A DNA stretch of 8,594 nt from a virus. Its lineage: Duplodnaviria > Heunggongvirae > Uroviricota > Caudoviricetes. The DNA lies in IMG/VR virus record IMGVR_UViG_2690316210_000003, positions 1-8,594 of that record, one strand, 5' to 3'. The notes below the pieces were generated by a model, which saw nothing but the letters and a program-made list of their open reading frames with translations, searched no databases and was not told where the DNA came from. The position numbers were made by a program, and so were the translations under genes. Shown here piece by piece: positions 1 through 6,024 of the stretch (the first letter of the stretch is position 1; every line of letters begins with the position of its first letter).

Positions 1-986
1 GGAAAATCGATACTGGAAAAACTCTAACTCGGTGGCCAGTTTTTGTTGACCACTTCAACGCGAATATGTCACTGGCAACGTTCTATAACACTGTCTTAGG
101 CGAAACCTTCGATGATCTTAACGAAGACCGCACAGCCGACGAACTGGAAACGCTGAAAACTGATATTAGCCTAGACAATATTCCTGATGATGTATTGGCT
201 CTGGTAGGTGGAGTTGACCAGCAAAAAGACCGTCTGGAATCTACCTTGCTGGGTATTTCTCGTAAAGGGATATGTGTAGTTGATCACCGATCATTCTATG
301 ATGTGAACTGCGAACGCCACGAATCACTAGCATATAACCAGCTTTACAACTTCCTGAAAGCGAAATTCTATACCCGATCCGGTGAACGAATCCCGATGTT
401 ATCTGCTTTCGTGGACTCATCGAACGGACGAGCTACAAACGTGATCTATCGATTCTGTAGTCGGTGGCAAAATCTAACCGCCATTAAAGGCGCAAGCAAT
501 GTTGATGCTCCAATCCTTCCGGTAAAAGACACAAGAACGGGCGGTTTTACCCTTAAAATTCTGGGCGTAAACAACCTTAAAACGATGATCCGTGAAATGA
601 TTAACCGGAACTTGAGAGATGGCGATCCTCACACTGTCTTCCAGATTGGTGACGTTCCTGATGACTACTGCGAGCAATTGCTATCTGAACAGTTGAAACG
701 GCAGGGTAATACCACACGTTGGGTAAAAGTTGGACAAGCACGAAACGAGGCTCTCGACTGCCTGGCTTATTCCTATGCTGCTTCTCGTCATGTGCTCAAT
801 AAAATGTCATGGGAAAAACTCGAAGCCATCAAAGATAGTTTGAACCGCGAACCAGAAGAATCCGTAAAAGCTCCTGAAACGCAATCTGACGAGCAAATCG
901 AAGAAACTAAGCCAATCACACGACCACAACGTCAAAACATCGCCAGACGCCCAAATAGAGGCCGTAGCTGGGTAACATCGTTCTAA
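1..986 (+). CDS. Probable terminase large subunit, C-terminal portion (5'-partial; gene starts upstream of window)
   Basis: The frame of the listed 66..986 ORF is open from the first full codon (nt 3) to TAA at 984-986. ATG at 66 has no Shine-Dalgarno upstream (aacgcgaatATG), so it is probably an internal Met. Placement directly upstream of the portal candidate fits a packaging ATPase/nuclease; the C-terminal RNEALDCLAYSYAA segment resembles lambda gpA-like terminases from memory only. Confidence 0.55.
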   Translation, partial: KIDTGKTLTRWPVFVDHFNANMSLATFYNTVLGETFDDLNEDRTADELETLKTDISLDNIPDDVLALVGGVDQQKDRLESTLLGISRKGICVVDHRSFYDVNCERHESLAYNQLYNFLKAKFYTRSGERIPMLSAFVDSSNGRATNVIYRFCSRWQNLTAIKGASNVDAPILPVKDTRTGGFTLKILGVNNLKTMIREMINRNLRDGDPHTVFQIGDVPDDYCEQLLSEQLKRQGNTTRWVKVGQARNEALDCLAYSYAASRHVLNKMSWEKLEAIKDSLNREPEESVKAPETQSDEQIEETKPITRPQRQNIARRPNRGRSWVTSF

Positions 987-992
987 TAACTC

Positions 993-1010
993 GCCGTCCT
1001 TCGGGGCGGC
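993..1010 (+). promoter_or_regulatory. GC-rich RNA stem-loop with UUCG tetraloop, no U-tract
   Basis: gccgtcc-ttcg-ggggcggc forms a 7-bp stem (one G-U pair) closing a UUCG loop, 7 nt after the terminase stop; the following sequence (ttactcc) is not U-rich, so it is not a classical intrinsic terminator. Confidence 0.45.
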
Positions 1011-1022
1011 TTACTCCTAAAT

Positions 1023-1042
1023 ATTGTTAATCCAATAACAAT
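1023..1042. repeat. 7-bp inverted repeat ATTGTTA-N6-TAACAAT upstream of the 164-aa gene
   Basis: Perfect 7-bp arms with a 6-nt spacer, read directly from the sequence; AT-rich, so chance occurrence is not excluded. Confidence 0.3.
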
Positions 1043-1046
1043 TAAA

Positions 1047-1058
1047 TAAGGGGTAATT
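1047..1058 (+). promoter_or_regulatory. Ribosome-binding site (ATAAGGGGTAAT motif)
   Basis: AAGGGG core 5 nt upstream of ATG 1059; same extended motif recurs at 1549, 5304 and 6012. Confidence 0.7.
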
Positions 1059-1553
1059 ATGAGTTTAGAACTAATTCCCTTAGTAATTCGTAAAGGCGAA
1101 AAAATCACGCTGGCGAATGAAGAGGGTGTAACAATTCAGGTAGGAAATAGTAAAGGTATCATTTATCAGGTTGATGATTCTCCGGCTAATCACGAGATTA
1201 AAACTCTCTCATTCGAGATAGGTAAATATACCATCGTAATAACTTTGGAAGAAGAACTGGTATCAATGCAGGAATTAACTGTTTTGCCAGTATTCGCCAA
1301 ACAATCCAAAAAAGAATATCTGCGGGAAACTATCGCCTTAATCGAGCAAGTTATTTTCGCCCGTTTATCTGGGGACGAAGCCGCATTATCTCAAATGACC
1401 GTGAAAGGAAATACTTTCGCCTATGAGTCATTGGCTGTTCTCCAGACTCTAAAAGTCGATTATGAACGTCAACTGTCTAAATTAATTCAAGCCGAACGAC
1501 GTAAACAGGGAATTAGCCCGATTAAAAATATCAAATTACGTCTTACGCGATAA
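1059..1553 (+). CDS. Hypothetical protein (164 aa), unknown function
   Basis: ATG with strong upstream RBS; stop TAA 1551-1553 overlaps the RBS of the next gene. No motif I can recognise. Sits between terminase and portal, where lambda has W, but is much longer than W. Confidence 0.8.
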   Translation: MSLELIPLVIRKGEKITLANEEGVTIQVGNSKGIIYQVDDSPANHEIKTLSFEIGKYTIVITLEEELVSMQELTVLPVFAKQSKKEYLRETIALIEQVIFARLSGDEAALSQMTVKGNTFAYESLAVLQTLKVDYERQLSKLIQAERRKQGISPIKNIKLRLTR

Positions 1554-1563
1554 GGGGTAAATC
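1549..1563 (+). promoter_or_regulatory. Ribosome-binding site overlapping upstream stop codon (ATAAGGGGTAAATC)
   Basis: TAA stop of the 164-aa gene (1551-1553) is the first three bases of the TAAGGGG element; ATG 1564 follows 6 nt after GGGG. Confidence 0.7.
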
Positions 1564-3075
1564 ATGTTTAATCTTTTTCGACGCAAAAAGGCGGTAGAAA
1601 CTCCAGTTAAAACTAATCACCGCCAGCAACAACCAAAAATTTTCATCGATAAGCAAGTAGAAAAATTTCAGAAAGACCTGAATACACGTTCATTGGGATT
1701 AGTTGGTGATCGCATTGATGGATCGCTTCAACAAGATACTATCACAGGAACCTTCAATAAGGCTCTCAAATCGAACGGTAAGCGCCTTTATGATCAGGGT
1801 CGTACTCTGGCTATAAACAATGCTGTAGGCAAGCGATACAAGCAGTATATCGTTGACCAAGTTGTTGGTACGGGGCTTGATCCGAAACCATCAATCGTTA
1901 AATCAAATGGCAAACTTGACACCGCACTGAATAAGCAGATCGAGAATGCTTTCTGGAAGTGGGCGCAGAGTGCTAAACGCTTCTCTCGCAACGGTCGCTT
2001 TAACTTCCGTGAAATGCTGGCAATGGCAGAATCTGAACGTGTTCAGGGTGGAGAATGCTTCATCGTTTTAACCAAAGAGAACAATGAGTTACAAGTTTCT
2101 ATTCTGTCTGCTGATAGGTGCGACTGGTCGCTTAGTCGTGAAATAAGCAAAGAACGTGCGATCTATCAGGGGATTGAGTATGACGTAGACACAATGCGCC
2201 CTGTAGCATACTGGTTTAGAAAAATCAATCTACTGACTCAGACCTACACTGGCGAAAATTATCGCGTAGATGCTTCTCAGGTGTGCCACTACTACCAGCC
2301 ACTGTGCGCGGAAAGTTTACGTGGTGTGACTGACTTCCTGCCAGTGATTAAGGATATTGCGCATCAAGAAGCGTTCCGCGAAACCGCGATCGTCCAGAAA
2401 CGTATTGCAGCTAGCTCTATGGGCTTTATTGAACGTCCGAAAGATTCTGGTGACGATTTTGATACTGGTGAAGAGGATGAACAATATCAAGCGCCGGAAG
2501 TAGTACAGGACTTTGCACCGGGTACTATTCAGGAATTGCCGGAAGGGGCAACAATCAAGAGCATTCAATCATCGCAAAATGGCGATGACTTTAACAGCTT
2601 CAATGATGCGATGTTCACTAGCGTATCAATGGGCTTAGGCGTGTTCAAACAGGGCTTAACAGGAGATTGTTCACAGATCAACTACTCAGCCGCACGTTTT
2701 GGGGAACTAACCCAGCGTAACCGCATTAAAGCACTGCAAAACAAATTGATTGAAACAGTGGTATTGCCAATTTTTGAAGCATATCTACGCCATTATTCCG
2801 CGCGTGGTATTGTTCCGATTCGTATTACTGCAATTCCGCATATTATCGATAATACAACTATTATTCGTCCGCGTTTTGAATCCGTCGATCCTATTAAAGA
2901 CGTAAACGCCGAGATTGCTTTAATTCAAAATGGTCTTAAATCACGTACTGCCGTTATATTAGAACGTGGTGATGATCCTGAAAAAGTATTCTCAGAGATT
3001 CAAGCCGAAAAGAGCGCACTAAATATTATCGTTGATGGCGAGGGTGAAGAAAAAAATTCCCCAGCCGATCCCTAA
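1564..3075 (+). CDS. Probable portal protein (503 aa)
   Basis: Size typical of portals, position between terminase and protease/capsid, acidic C-terminal tail (DGEGEEKNSPADP). Assignment is by synteny and size, not a verified homology hit. Confidence 0.6.
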   Translation: MFNLFRRKKAVETPVKTNHRQQQPKIFIDKQVEKFQKDLNTRSLGLVGDRIDGSLQQDTITGTFNKALKSNGKRLYDQGRTLAINNAVGKRYKQYIVDQVVGTGLDPKPSIVKSNGKLDTALNKQIENAFWKWAQSAKRFSRNGRFNFREMLAMAESERVQGGECFIVLTKENNELQVSILSADRCDWSLSREISKERAIYQGIEYDVDTMRPVAYWFRKINLLTQTYTGENYRVDASQVCHYYQPLCAESLRGVTDFLPVIKDIAHQEAFRETAIVQKRIAASSMGFIERPKDSGDDFDTGEEDEQYQAPEVVQDFAPGTIQELPEGATIKSIQSSQNGDDFNSFNDAMFTSVSMGLGVFKQGLTGDCSQINYSAARFGELTQRNRIKALQNKLIETVVLPIFEAYLRHYSARGIVPIRITAIPHIIDNTTIIRPRFESVDPIKDVNAEIALIQNGLKSRTAVILERGDDPEKVFSEIQAEKSALNIIVDGEGEEKNSPADP

Positions 3076-3083
3076 TAACCAAC

Positions 3084-3100
3084 GGGGGCGCAATGCCCCC
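3084..3100 (+). promoter_or_regulatory. GC-rich stem-loop (GGGGGC/GCCCCC), no U-tract
   Basis: gggggc-gcaat-gccccc, 6-bp G:C stem 8 nt after the portal stop and 20 nt before ATG 3121; followed by aattaatt rather than a T-run. Confidence 0.45.
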
Positions 3101-3108
3101 AATTAATT

Positions 3109-3120
3109 AAAGGTGATTAA
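3109..3120 (+). promoter_or_regulatory. Ribosome-binding site (AAAGGTGATTAA)
   Basis: AGGTGA 4 nt upstream of ATG 3121. Confidence 0.65.
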
Positions 3121-3630
3121 ATGCTTAAATTTCGCCGCGAACTTAACGGTTACGGTGGAGTTATTAACGAAGGGCATACTGATCAATACGAATTTGAAAT
3201 TGCTTTCTCCAGTGAACAGCCTTATCAGCGCCAATTCTGGGATGAGCAAAATCAAGAAATGGTGGTATTAGATGAAATTCTGGTACATACACCGGAAGCG
3301 GTTGATCTGTCTCGTCTGAATAATAACGCTCCGTTGCTGTTTAATCATAATTTCGATAATCATTTAGGTGTCGTTTGTAACGCTCGAATCGATGCGGATA
3401 AAGTAGGCCGTGCGACCGTTAGATTCTCTAAGCATGGCACTTTGGCTAATGATATTCGTAATAAAGTCATTGAAGGTACGATGGAAAAAATTTCTGTCGG
3501 CTATGACATTAAAGAATATCACATCGATTATGCCAAAGGACAATTGATTGTTACTAAGTTTGTTCCTTTCGAATTAAGTTTTGTTACGGTCCCGGCGGAC
3601 GATTCGGTCGGTTTAAATCGCTCTCTAAAT
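3121..3630 (+). other. HK97-type prohead protease domain (approximate bounds)
   Basis: Candidate catalytic His76 and Ser125 are 49 residues apart; I recall the same spacing for HK97 gp4 (His65/Ser114), unverified. Confidence 0.5.
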
Positions 3631-5124
3631 ACTATCACAGTTAATTTGGAGGCTAAACGCGATATGACTAAAGAACAAATTGAAGAAATCAAAGAAGAAC
3701 AAGAATCCGCTCAGGTTGAAGAAACTCCGGTAGAAGAAATTAAAGAATCGGAAGTTGAAGAAACTCAAGAGCGCCAAGTTGAAGAGAATAAAGAAGATGA
3801 AAATCTCGAAGACGGAAAAGACGCTGAACATCCTGAAAGTGTTGATGATGATAGTTCAACTGTTCGGGAAACAGAAGAAGTAAAAGAAGAACGTGAAGCT
3901 GCTCCGGTTGAAGAAGAAAAAACCGAGGAAGTGGCTGAACGTTCCGAAGAAGACGAATTAGAAATCCGCGAAATTGCACGCGAGCTAAATATTAACGACG
4001 AAGAATTAGAACGCGCATTGGCAGTTAAAGACATGACGCCGGAAGCATTCCGCACTAAGGCACTAAATAACATTACCAATGCTCAACGTATTAACGAACA
4101 ACAAATTAAGGACTCTAAAATGGAAAAAACTTTTGACCTGAACAACGTAATTCGCTCTCTGGTAGATGGTGAAGCTCTGGGTGCTCACGAAGCCGAGTTT
4201 TCTGCAATGGCTGCTACTGCAACTATGCAGCGTGGTCGTGCTGCTCGTGGTGGCTCTGTATTCGTTCCGGCTGCTGCTATGCGTGCTGCTGCTGCTGGTA
4301 ACACCAAAGCTGACCTGACTGCTATCACTGACGAAAAACTGATGACTGAATCCTACATCGAAATGCTGATGCCGGAATCCGTTCTGGGTCGTCTGGGTGT
4401 GACTGTTTATAGTGGCTTGACTGCTCCGACCGCTATTCCAAAAATGACTAAATCCAGCGTTGACGCTTTCGGCTTCGTTGATGAAAACGGTGCTGCACCG
4501 GAAGGCAAAGCTGAATTTGCAAACGTGAAACTGTCTCCTAAGACTTTTGCTGGTGGGAACCCGATCAGCCGCCAGAGCATCAAAACCGTACCGGGCATCG
4601 CTACCCTGATCACTGATCACATCAACCAGGCTGTTCGCATCAAACTGGAACAACTGATTCTGTCTGACAAAGCTAACGATCGTGGTCCGGCTGGTCTGGT
4701 TAAACAACTGGTAGACGCTAGCCGCGTTGAGAAGAAAGCTGCTTTCACCTACAAAGACTTCCTGAAAGAAATTGCTAAACTGACCGACGCTGGCGTTCCG
4801 GCACAGTCCATCAAGTTTGCAATGAGCGGTGCAACTGCTGCTGAACTGGAATCTACCCTGAAAGATAACGGCGTTTCTGGTTATATCATCGAAAACGGCA
4901 AACTGGCTGGTTACGAAGTAGTTACTTCTGGTGTTATTCCGGCAGACCACATCGTTCTGGGTGACTTCTCCGGTATTACTATCGGTGAGTGGGGCGGTCT
5001 GGAACTGGATATGGACGACACCACCTACCGCGCACAGTCCGCTATCGTTCCGCGTATCTGGGTAGATCTGGATTATGTAGTTACCCAGCCGGAAGCTCTG
5101 AAAGTTCTTCACGTCTCCGAATGA
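3121..5124 (+). CDS. Prohead protease - scaffold-like acidic segment - major capsid protein fusion ORF (667 aa)
   Basis: Single uninterrupted ORF. The N-terminal ~170 aa carry HK97-type prohead protease (S78/U35-like) motifs as I remember them: LLFNHNFDNHLG (His76), KISVGYDI (Ser125), ELSFVTVPADD. Residues ~182-333 are Glu-rich and low-complexity, like a scaffold/delta domain. Residues 334-667 are Ala/Gly-rich with strongly optimised codons, typical of a major capsid protein. Confidence 0.75.
   Translation: MLKFRRELNGYGGVINEGHTDQYEFEIAFSSEQPYQRQFWDEQNQEMVVLDEILVHTPEAVDLSRLNNNAPLLFNHNFDNHLGVVCNARIDADKVGRATVRFSKHGTLANDIRNKVIEGTMEKISVGYDIKEYHIDYAKGQLIVTKFVPFELSFVTVPADDSVGLNRSLNTITVNLEAKRDMTKEQIEEIKEEQESAQVEETPVEEIKESEVEETQERQVEENKEDENLEDGKDAEHPESVDDDSSTVRETEEVKEEREAAPVEEEKTEEVAERSEEDELEIREIARELNINDEELERALAVKDMTPEAFRTKALNNITNAQRINEQQIKDSKMEKTFDLNNVIRSLVDGEALGAHEAEFSAMAATATMQRGRAARGGSVFVPAAAMRAAAAGNTKADLTAITDEKLMTESYIEMLMPESVLGRLGVTVYSGLTAPTAIPKMTKSSVDAFGFVDENGAAPEGKAEFANVKLSPKTFAGGNPISRQSIKTVPGIATLITDHINQAVRIKLEQLILSDKANDRGPAGLVKQLVDASRVEKKAAFTYKDFLKEIAKLTDAGVPAQSIKFAMSGATAAELESTLKDNGVSGYIIENGKLAGYEVVTSGVIPADHIVLGDFSGITIGEWGGLELDMDDTTYRAQSAIVPRIWVDLDYVVTQPEALKVLHVSE
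3664..4119 (+). other. Glu-rich scaffold/delta-like segment with in-frame internal ATG at 3664
   Basis: About 150 residues dominated by E/K/V with 39-bp periodic GTTGAAGAA(ACT) repeats (3715, 3754, 3778); GGAGG at 3648-3652 lies 11 nt upstream of the in-frame ATG 3664. Confidence 0.45.
4120..5124 (+). other. Major capsid protein domain (HK97-fold candidate) with in-frame internal ATG at 4120
   Basis: AAGGA at 4108-4112 lies 7 nt upstream of ATG 4120 (MEKTFDL...). From here to the stop, Leu is almost exclusively CTG and Arg CGT, with Gly GGT and Ala GCT favoured, unlike the upstream part of the same ORF. Confidence 0.6.
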
Positions 5125-5146
5125 ACTAGCTTAGAACCTTCTGAAC

Positions 5147-5167
5147 CTTCCCCCGATTTGGGGGAAG
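5147..5167 (+). promoter_or_regulatory. Perfect 8-bp stem-loop (CTTCCCCC-gattt-GGGGGAAG) 22 nt downstream of the capsid stop
   Basis: Read directly; followed by purine-rich sequence, no U-tract. Confidence 0.5.
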
Positions 5168-5261
5168 AAAATCTGATTCCATCTCAGGAAGAAGAAGTTC
5201 AAGAGGTTACGGCGAAAGCCACAGTTAAAAAAGAACGTAAGACTAAAGCAAAATAATAATT

Positions 5262-5288
5262 AGCCCTGCCTAACGGTGGGGCTTTTTT
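5262..5288 (+). terminator. Rho-independent terminator after the capsid gene
   Basis: agccctgcc-taac-ggtggggct forms a 9-bp stem (two G-U pairs) followed immediately by TTTTT(T); located after the TAATAA double stop. Confidence 0.7.
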
Positions 5289-5303
5289 GTATGTAAATAC
5301 TCC

Positions 5304-5318
5304 ATAAAGGGGGTAACT
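5304..5318 (+). promoter_or_regulatory. Ribosome-binding site (ATAAAGGGGGTAACT)
   Basis: GGGGG 5 nt upstream of ATG 5319; begins only ~15 nt after the terminator U-tract. Confidence 0.7.
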
Positions 5319-5609
5319 ATGTTCAAATTATCAGAATCACAATTATCAAGAATGTTTAAGAGTGCTCCTGTATTTGTGGTGGAAGGTGGTAAATCAATTC
5401 GTGCTTACCATGAAATTACTACTACCGACGAACAAGGGGTAATTACAGAATCAGAATTTCTATTTTGTCGTGAGGGAGACTTAAATCAGGGTGATGTTGT
5501 CATTGTAGACGGTGAACGCTTCAAAGTTCAATACGTTAAGCGCAATGGTGATAATACTTCTGATTGCTTTATTGCTCGTGCAGGGGGTACACATGCTCGC
5601 TACCGTTAA
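5319..5609 (+). CDS. Small virion protein (96 aa), possible head-tail adaptor/head-closure protein
   Basis: Strong RBS; the C-terminal GDVVIVDGERFKVQYV segment resembles the end of head-tail joining proteins as I recall them. Position is immediately downstream of the capsid gene. Function tentative. Confidence 0.75.
   Translation: MFKLSESQLSRMFKSAPVFVVEGGKSIRAYHEITTTDEQGVITESEFLFCREGDLNQGDVVIVDGERFKVQYVKRNGDNTSDCFIARAGGTHARYR
5582..5592 (+). promoter_or_regulatory. Ribosome-binding site embedded in the 3' coding end of the 96-aa gene (AGGGGGTACAC)
   Basis: GGGGGTA + 3 nt + ATG 5593, same geometry as the RBSs at 1059, 5319 and 6025. Confidence 0.6.
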
Positions 5610-6015
5610 TAATATGCCGAGACTGAAAATCAAACGCGCCTTGCAAGATATTATCGAACAAGATTTAGGTCTGGCTTTAAACGTAGAACAAACTCAGCAA
5701 GGCTTTAGTGATGACGTGGTTTGTTGGATTACTGGCATGAATGAAACTTATACGCGTGTTCGTGGTGGTAATGCAATGCAAGCTGAATGCGTTATCGAAA
5801 TGCAGTTGTATTCTCAGAATCATGAAACAAAAATCCATGAGGGTATTTGCCAGATAATCCAGATTCAGCCGGATAACCCACGATTTAAAGATTTGGGCTT
5901 CTCTATTTCAGATATCACTCCAGTAGCTTCTAATACCGATTATGACGATGATTCTAGTGATGGGGGTATCGTTGGGACACTTAGCCTTAAATTTTCTTAT
6001 CTAGCGCGTTTTTAA
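5593..6015 (+). CDS. Hypothetical structural protein (141 aa from ATG 5593), possible connector/tail-completion protein
   Basis: Same frame as the listed 5512..6015 ORF, but 5512 is a GTG with no RBS inside the upstream gene; ATG 5593 has the conserved RBS. Overlaps the upstream gene by 17 nt. ATG 5614 is an alternative start without a recognisable RBS. Confidence 0.7.
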   Translation: MLATVNNMPRLKIKRALQDIIEQDLGLALNVEQTQQGFSDDVVCWITGMNETYTRVRGGNAMQAECVIEMQLYSQNHETKIHEGICQIIQIQPDNPRFKDLGFSISDITPVASNTDYDDDSSDGGIVGTLSLKFSYLARF

Positions 6016-6024
6016 GGGGTAATA
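6012..6024 (+). promoter_or_regulatory. Ribosome-binding site overlapping upstream stop (TTAAGGGGTAATA)
   Basis: TAA stop 6013-6015 forms the start of TAAGGGG; ATG 6025 lies 5 nt after GGGG. Confidence 0.7.

Follow-up and report, generated by a model that had tools for sequence, protein, structure and literature searches.

The DNA analysed here, referred to below as the window, is a stretch of 8,594 nucleotides (positions 1 to 8,594) of the Caudoviricetes record IMGVR_UViG_2690316210_000003 and represents the head and tail module of an Escherichia coli prophage. The C-terminal part of the large terminase (PF20454) is followed by an open reading frame (ORF) for 164 amino acids, a lambda-type portal gene (PF05136) and an ORF of 667 codons at 3121-5124, downstream of which come the head-tail joining genes, an ORF for 277 amino acids and a tail-fibre gene. 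The 667-codon ORF, the translation of which is the subject of this report, joins an S78 prohead protease, an acidic linker and an HK97-type capsid protein in a single frame, and its codon usage changes abruptly at an internal ATG (Table 1).

The Pfam profile of the protease (PF04586, Peptidase_S78) matches residues 40-162 with 41.6 bits against a cut-off of 21, and that of the capsid protein (PF05065, Phage_capsid) matches residues 410-663 with 89.5 bits against a cut-off of 24.2. Two protease residues, which we take from homology to HK97 gp4 to be catalytic, are kept in nearly all of the 79 aligned relatives, His76 (nt 3346-3348) in 77 and Ser125 (nt 3493-3495, in an SVGY motif) in 78. With phmmer, residues 409-661 match a solved capsid protein, 8gta_A (E = 3.5e-24). 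The latter, from roseophage R4C, is HK97-like (PMC10276861), and by homology to it the capsid part of the window ORF would have the HK97 fold. The gene is present at 80-96% identity in 49 complete E. coli genomes, where the Prokaryotic Genome Annotation Pipeline (PGAP) presents it as a single coding sequence that is always named 'phage major capsid protein'. A megablast search of isolated phages returned no close relative of the gene at the DNA level, and no Rfam family matched within the window.

Table 1. Features of the fused protease-capsid reading frame and its immediate flanks.
Feature	Positions	Strand	Remarks
Weak ribosome-binding site of the full-length ORF, AAGGTGA, 4-nt spacer	3110..3116	+	-4.3 kcal/mol with the 16S 3' end
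667-aa ORF: S78 prohead protease, acidic linker and HK97-type capsid protein	3121..5124	+	
Protease part, residues 1-181	3121..3663	+	Low codon adaptation
Candidate internal start: GGAGG (3648-3652), 11-nt spacer, ATG 3664-3666 (codon 182)	3648..3666	+	Protease|linker junction
Acidic linker, residues 183-333	3667..4119	+	36% Asp+Glu
Internal Shine-Dalgarno sequence AAGGA, 7 nt before ATG 4120	4108..4112	+	Rare Lys codon AAG plus GAC
In-frame ATG, codon 334	4120..4122	+	At the change point of codon usage
Proposed internally initiated capsid gene, 334 aa, MEKTFDL...	4120..5124	+	Strong codon adaptation
Predicted propeptide of the capsid protein, residues 334 to ~403	4120..4329	+	From R4C homology; probably cleaved off at maturation
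TGA stop followed by A, in-frame extension of 42 codons at 5125-5250 (TSLEPSEPSPDLGEENLIPSQEEEVQEVTAKATVKKERKTKAK), TAATAA at 5251-5256	5122..5256	+	Candidate readthrough
Peptide stretch TSLEPSEPSPDLGEENLIPSQEEEVQEVTAK		+	Within the candidate readthrough extension
Intrinsic terminator after the capsid gene	5262..5290	+	9-bp stem with 6 G-C pairs, then a T-run

A step in codon usage within one reading frame

Codon adaptation was measured with a codon adaptation index (CAI) weighted on 29 E. coli K-12 ribosomal-protein, tufA and fusA genes, which themselves score 0.55-0.83. On this scale the protease part reaches 0.41, the linker 0.53 and the capsid part (from 4120) 0.79, which is near the top of the reference set, and all remaining genes of the window lie at 0.33-0.42. 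Because the optimal codons of Glu and Lys are AT-rich ones too, both amino acids were excluded in a second run, giving 0.368, 0.387 and 0.779, respectively; the linker then shows no difference from the protease (Fisher p = 0.69) and a pronounced one from the capsid part (p = 3e-10). The best two-segment split of the ORF falls at nt 4111, on a flat optimum extending over 4081-4135. Its statistic, 48.9, was reached by none of 5000 shuffles that permuted synonymous codons within each amino acid (mean 4.8, maximum 33.4). Independently of the host, the effective number of codons drops from 45.6 upstream to 31.6 downstream, and the heterogeneity between the two parts (G = 138) was matched in none of 2000 permutations. 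The switch in codon usage within one ORF that the initial annotation had described thus holds under quantification, as it does in the comparison with host ribosomal-protein genes that had been proposed alongside it, in which third-position G+C content (GC3) also rises, from 0.31 to 0.46.

Between the upstream part (3121-4119) and the capsid part (4120-5121), CTG increases from 4 of 21 to 25 of 27 Leu codons, AAC from 7 of 23 to 10 of 10 Asn codons, ATC from 5 of 20 to 15 of 21 Ile codons, CAC from 1 of 7 to 4 of 4 His codons and CAG from 3 of 15 to 6 of 8 Gln codons, and the same direction is seen for Gly (GGT and GGC, 8/12 to 28/29) and Thr (ACC and ACT, 12/18 to 24/24). At 44 of its 45 positions in the capsid part Ala is encoded by GCT or GCA, GCC being used once and GCG never. 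Two of the codon choices cited by the initial annotation, Arg CGT and Pro CCG, fail to separate the two halves: CGT and CGC account for 16 of 19 Arg codons upstream and 12 of 12 in the capsid part, and CCG is the majority Pro codon on either side of the step (6 of 9 and 11 of 13).

Overall G+C content rises across the step from ~0.38-0.43 to ~0.50, mostly at second codon positions (from ~0.2-0.4 to 0.35-0.7 in sliding windows, the capsid protein being rich in Ala and Gly) with a moderate contribution of GC3. Given that optimal codons ending in A or T (GCT, GGT, GTT and ACT) are enriched and GCG is absent, the step points to translational selection and not to a compositional shift. The same pattern excludes GC-rich foreign DNA as the source, and an artefact of amino-acid composition is excluded by the shuffles, which preserve amino acids and never reach the step. 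In a related complete prophage of E. coli STEC1575 (NZ_CP116044, ~1.97-2.00 Mb), CAI follows the expected copy number of the products, with 0.78 in the capsid part, 0.64 in the tail tube gene and 0.27-0.57 in the other structural genes; the protease part (0.40) and the linker resemble low-copy genes, and one early-region gene of unassigned function scores 0.67.

Putative internal start sites and their conservation

The ribosome-binding site of the full-length ORF is the weakest in the window and similar to that of the low-copy tail-fibre gene at 6932, the TAAGGGG-type sites of the neighbouring genes ranging from -8.4 to -12.0 kcal/mol. Inside the ORF, two ATGs preceded by Shine-Dalgarno (SD) sequences, GGAGG-N11-ATG 3664 and AAGGA-N7-ATG 4120, are in frame with 3121-5124 and share its stop codon. 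The latter coincides with the step in codon usage. Its SD has a pairing energy of -5.8 kcal/mol, and the region from -30 to +20 of the ATG, with a minimum free energy of -0.3 kcal/mol, ranks among the 1.1% of the ORF's in-frame windows with the least structure. The GGAGG before ATG 3664 is the strongest SD in the ORF (-9.3 kcal/mol) and is made of the rare codons TTG and GAG; the site is preserved in close relatives. No codon step follows ATG 3664 when linker and protease are compared without Glu and Lys, and codon 182 as the start of a highly translated unit is hence unsupported in this lineage. Upstream of both, between the portal stop and the protease start, a G+C-rich hairpin, GGGGGCGCAATGCCCCC, is located at 3083-3101 and is terminator-like on the minus strand only.

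Viral contigs were scanned for relatives, and of the 77 loci obtained 32 have ~90% and 45 have 31-38% protein identity. An ATG occupies the column homologous to codon 334 in 71 of them, down to the 31-38% level, and in all 17 distinct upstream contexts represented by these 71 loci AAGGA stands 7 or 10 nt before it. The peptide around the motif differs from context to context (KDSK, NKEQI, NKEKN, NKESI, KDDK, EDKK, DDEN and others). Its Lys codon is always AAG, although AAG makes up 20% of the Lys codons in these ORFs, and AAGGA is found in 0.9% of comparable windows, with not one of 187 other internal ATGs preceded by it. As AAGGA and the ATG are kept while peptide and register change, conservation appears to reflect a constraint on the SD at the nucleotide level rather than on the peptide.

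The coincidence of a codon step with an SD-ATG recurs in other lineages. In Escherichia phage DCP80 (44% identity) the change point is codon 181 and an AAGGA-N7-ATG is found at codon 180; the respective positions are codon 218 and a GAGGG-ATG at codon 217 in Bas97, and codon 225 and a GAGGA-ATG at codon 215 in Arya, while in the group of locus L034 the step is at codon 183, where CAI rises from 0.28 to 0.73, and codon 193 is an ATG preceded by a weak AAGAG site. For each of the four, 0 or 1 of 1000 permutations reached the observed statistic. The step is located here at the protease|scaffold junction and the adapted unit includes the scaffold-like linker, so that the boundary tracks initiation sites instead of the edge of the mature shell domain. 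Nine of 10 representatives have, again independently of the host, an effective number of codons of 45-51 upstream and 32-37 downstream.

To gauge how general the internal starts are, 42 non-redundant fused ORFs were analysed, most of them from a scan of one genome per bacterial species (80 loci) together with DCP80, L034 and Bas97. A junction start, defined as an in-frame ATG situated 8-65 codons downstream of the conserved protease motif PxExSxVxxP and having an SD no weaker than -5.5 kcal/mol, is present in 29 of the 42, from diverse bacteria. ATGs in this junction window carry an SD in 30 of 62 cases, compared with 47 of 551 in the remainder of these ORFs (odds ratio 10, Fisher p = 9e-14); this ATG-only enrichment test was used in place of the best single SD-start including GTG and TTG, which is noisy in GC-rich genomes. 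By a rough measure, codon bias is stronger downstream in 24 of 27 fused ORFs, five being individually significant. The 629-aa fused ORF of R4C has a GGAGG-N5-ATG at codon 189. Judging from these counts, a junction start at the protease|scaffold boundary is apparently the common state of this architecture, and the extra start at codon 334 would be a trait of the window lineage and its nearer relatives.

Proposed nested genes and the alternatives

Comparison with relatives suggests that the 334-aa unit beginning at ATG 4120 is a complete capsid protein. An exhaustive search of representatives retrieved mostly fused proteins of 580-690 aa as best relatives, but also some 400-445-aa proteins of the delta-plus-capsid type, with query residue 1 aligned at positions 80-125, and a few stand-alone homologues of 345-349 aa, which start 10-20 residues before the equivalent of Met334. 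When the 334-aa part was used in a word-indexed search for homologues, most of the entries retrieved were truncated or partial, and the search was uninformative on stand-alone capsid genes; the one 335-aa entry, P0006, is shortened by the end of its contig. The solved R4C protein was used to place the edge of the mature domain: the mature protein (8gta, 268 aa) corresponds to residues 362-629 of the 629-aa fused ORF, and its first residue aligns to approximately window residue 404. The internal product would, on this alignment, carry a propeptide of ~65-70 aa, and the segment from residue 334 to ~403 has a CAI of 0.84.

Collectively, these patterns make it likely that ORF 3121-5124 consists of nested, in-frame, 3'-coterminal genes and does not give rise to one uniformly translated polypeptide, the capsid protein being the abundant internal product. 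Of the two explanations that the initial annotation had offered for the switch, an internal start that gives the capsid part more translation is the one favoured by the accessible and conserved AAGGA-N7-ATG at the change point and by the steps at other SD-ATGs elsewhere. We envisage that rare initiation at the weak site of ATG 3121 would produce the full-length protease-linker-capsid protein as a minor product, that initiation at ATG 3664 would possibly add a linker-capsid form, and that much more frequent initiation at the unstructured ATG 4120 would supply the 334-aa capsid protein with its propeptide. The shell would be built from this abundant product. A few full-length copies would be incorporated by way of their capsid domain and take the protease, on its acidic tether, into the procapsid, where it would then cleave off the N-terminal regions. 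The nested genes would in this way set the stoichiometry, with few protease-tether-capsid, possibly some linker-capsid and many capsid molecules. Bearing most of the ribosome traffic, the capsid part alone would be under selection for the high-expression codons of E. coli, which would account for the sharpness of the step.

Several observations weigh against nested initiation. The SD at 4120 is moderate and weaker than the one at 3664, yet it is the latter that lacks a codon step; the 11-nt spacer at 3664 may be too long. The K-D/E before the Met could be conserved for a reason at the protein level, and the wider family does not keep Met334. Deprived of its scaffolding domain, the HK97 capsid protein aggregates (PMC10275583), and a mostly scaffold-free capsid protein would accordingly need the ~65-aa propeptide or the minor longer forms for assembly. 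Among the related loci, the change point is broad in L040 (185-306) and lies at 240 in L050, where the ATG is at 304; L061 and L064 have no significant heterogeneity, and L043 and L063 are marginal (~0.02-0.03). The CAI change points of these groups, which are broad, shifted or lack significance, were obtained with E. coli weights, perhaps not those of their hosts, and constitute neither support nor refutation; only the host-independent effective number of codons and G tests were used for them.

The abundance of the capsid product could also be set mainly by transcription, an internal promoter or RNA processing giving rise to an abundant shorter capsid mRNA that is still translated from ATG 4120. 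We regard this as unlikely, albeit with an appreciable chance of being correct: the same arrangement exists in the herpesvirus protease-scaffold genes (UL26.5), it would explain a very high output from a moderate SD, and late phage promoters need not look like sigma-70 sites. A promoter consensus scan, however, found no sigma-70-like site in 3532-4120, the regional count of 3 comparing with 3.6 expected from shuffles. Moreover, an internal transcript would complement nested initiation, as the internal start would still be required.

Alternatively, the ORF might be translated uniformly, with selection for accuracy or co-translational folding acting only on the part retained in the virion, so that the discarded protease and linker tolerate poor codons. 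Codon bias was reportedly found by Akashi in 1994 to be somewhat stronger at functionally constrained sites, and the mature shell domain is the only part that the virion retains. The observed step, from 0.37-0.39 to 0.78 without Glu and Lys, is nevertheless far above known accuracy effects, and it encompasses the residues from 334 to ~403, highly adapted even though they are probably cleaved off. In DCP80, the L034 group, Bas97 and Arya, furthermore, full adaptation extends over the disposable scaffold, and the SD-ATG between protease and scaffold is where the step occurs. Uniform translation of this kind therefore seems very unlikely.

The other explanation put forward by the initial annotation, mosaic acquisition of the capsid half from a different, highly adapted phage, with the step as the recombination junction, is highly improbable. 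Exchange between capsid genes is evident: L002 shares 99.5% identity with the window over codons 334-400 and 541-610 and 94.7-99.5% across the capsid blocks, with 93% in the protease, the reverse is true of L005, L009, L012 and L030 (protease 99%, capsid blocks 82-96%), some capsid blocks have alleles of high and low CAI (codons 401-470, 0.76 versus 0.46-0.54), and the rise in G+C content from ~0.40 to ~0.50 may likewise be counted for an acquisition. Yet the breakpoints, mapped against the window, are dispersed (near codons 180, 270-330 and 390), and the comparison with relatives disclosed none fixed at codon 334, the boundary that was to be checked for a recombination junction. All 32 close alleles retain the low/high split, as do the distant lineages, in which synonymous sites are saturated, so that the split must be maintained by selection and not inherited from a single event. 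The preferred codons are those of the host ribosomal-protein set, including the ones ending in A or T, with GCG at 0 of 45 Ala positions and no signature of a GC-rich donor, and the step meets an SD-ATG in several lineages at differing protein positions. Recombination is real in this gene family, yet the step, being present in every allele and in all distant lineages, does not originate from it.

With regard to diversity among the close relatives (L002-L032), the protease part is 90-99% identical, and the capsid part is a patchwork of blocks (e.g., codons 401-470 and 611-667) whose alleles share 74-99% nucleotide identity and vary in CAI from 0.46 to 0.90. Among the E. coli prophages, the mean pairwise synonymous difference is 0.12-0.27 in the capsid blocks and 0.06-0.11 upstream. 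The patchwork may reflect diversifying exchange of capsid segments.

A broader form of nested initiation is, in our view, speculative. One capsid ORF would yield up to four isoforms by translational control, from ATGs 3121, 3664 and 4120 and as a minor form reading through UGA-A into 5125-5250; the protease would be packaged as an N-terminal extension of a few shell subunits, most bacterial protease-capsid fusions would be nested genes, and steps in CAI within genes could be used to find hidden starts. The literature searched, mostly outside subscription journals, contained no mention of internal initiation or readthrough in protease-capsid fusion genes, and a prior description is possible.

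The closest parallel is with known nested protease genes. In the lambda C/Nu3 pair, internal initiation yields the scaffold, and a separate gene encodes the capsid protein gpE. As in C/Nu3, and also in Mu I/Z, the window has in-frame 3'-coterminal ORFs and an internal SD-ATG in the protease gene and would have an abundant assembly protein and a minor protease form, with a start at the equivalent place (GGAGG-ATG at codon 182, as in the 29 of 42 fused ORFs); the difference is that the ORF here continues through the capsid protein and that a second internal start, at codon 334, would yield the capsid protein itself. The herpesvirus genes UL26 and UL26.5 are expressed from separate transcripts, the shorter one from an internal promoter, and the capsid protein is encoded elsewhere. 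They resemble the window in their nested in-frame organization and in the features proposed here for its products, a low ratio of protease to structural protein and entry of the protease through a shared C-terminal assembly domain, but here a ribosome-binding site lies inside the ORF, where the scan found no promoter-like site. The Gag-Pol proteins of retroviruses and L-A provide an analogy only: a minority of capsid subunits is fused to the enzyme, which is packaged by co-assembly, but the enzyme is C-terminal and arises by frameshifting or readthrough, whereas here it is N-terminal and would arise by alternative initiation. HK97 gp4 and gp5 (delta domain plus capsid protein) belong to the same protease family and capsid fold, and there too an N-terminal region is cleaved off by the protease, which is needed in far fewer copies than the capsid protein. 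However, the two are separate genes, the protease is targeted by a C-terminal tail, and every subunit has the full scaffolding domain (PMC10275583), whereas the abundant product here would be devoid of the long linker.

Protease-scaffold-capsid fusions form an annotation category of their own and have been described as a single fused product (PMC7302621; bioRxiv 10.1101/2021.08.04.455094). The fusion genes of small actinobacteriophages, the Rhodobacter RcC cluster and roseophage R4C have the same order of S78 protease, linker and HK97-fold capsid protein, and those of R4C and the RcC phages are detectable homologues of the window ORF; the structural paper on R4C uses the numbering of the mature protein only and leaves the protease unmentioned (PMC10276861). 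In contrast to these single-product descriptions, our results suggest mostly separate nested products. Such fusions, with or without the scaffold, are widespread and are listed in databases as single proteins, although a 1:1 ratio of protease to capsid protein is at odds with HK97-type assembly, for which the protease is needed in far fewer copies. If correct, nested genes would solve this stoichiometry problem and offer a simple route for packaging the protease, in which a few fused subunits co-assemble with the others. These capsid proteins would then have to be annotated and recombinantly expressed in a different way, and a CAI step within an ORF would be a cheap indicator of alternative initiation that needs nothing but sequence.

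The 3' extension and other features of the window

The stop codon of the capsid gene is a candidate for programmed readthrough of the Qbeta A1 type. In all 32 close relatives, TGA-A is followed by an in-frame extension of 84, 126, 129, 132 or 135 nt, all multiples of 3, and by TAATAA. The remaining two frames of the extension are closed, and it contains no ATG with an SD. Distant lineages end nearly always in TAA, and none has a comparable conserved extension; in L059, TGA is directly followed by a second stop. Variable sites of the extension number 7, 17 and 20 at the first, second and third codon positions, with no clean third-position excess. Readthrough at UGA-A would generate a minor capsid form with a basic C-terminal tail and, if it occurs, would represent a rare example of programmed readthrough in a tailed phage whose genome is double-stranded DNA.

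A stable RNA structure is predicted at 5135-5208, ~10-20 nt after the TGA, the fold of 186 nt having -58.8 kcal/mol (z = -4.4) and its core, cccccgatttggggg, lying at 5150-5164. Relatives with short extensions have, as judged by eye, a different hairpin, CCGGAAGAAATTCCGG, at a similar distance. The structure at 5135-5208 could stimulate readthrough or stabilise the 3' end.

Further downstream, the tail-fibre gene contains a segment (window ~7799-8556) with up to 85% identity to gene 37, for the distal long tail fibre, in the T4-like phage RB49 and related phages, and this segment was the sole match in a distant DNA search of isolated phages. The similarity appears to reflect exchange of a receptor-binding module between a temperate siphovirus-like prophage and lytic myoviruses. 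A T4-like classification is also attached to the record of Escherichia phage DCP80 (PQ671644.1, 141 kb, Gaprivervirus; L001, 1-13765), which starts with a lambda-type terminase, a portal and an S78 protease-capsid fusion module, all annotated as hypothetical. Such a head module would not be expected of a T4-like phage, and the record is possibly a chimera or wrongly classified.

Lastly, ORF 5512-6015 overlaps a 96-aa ORF (5319-5609) by ~100 nt. The counterpart of the former in a related annotated prophage is 140 aa long, so that its real start is probably ATG 5593, which has GGGGG upstream.

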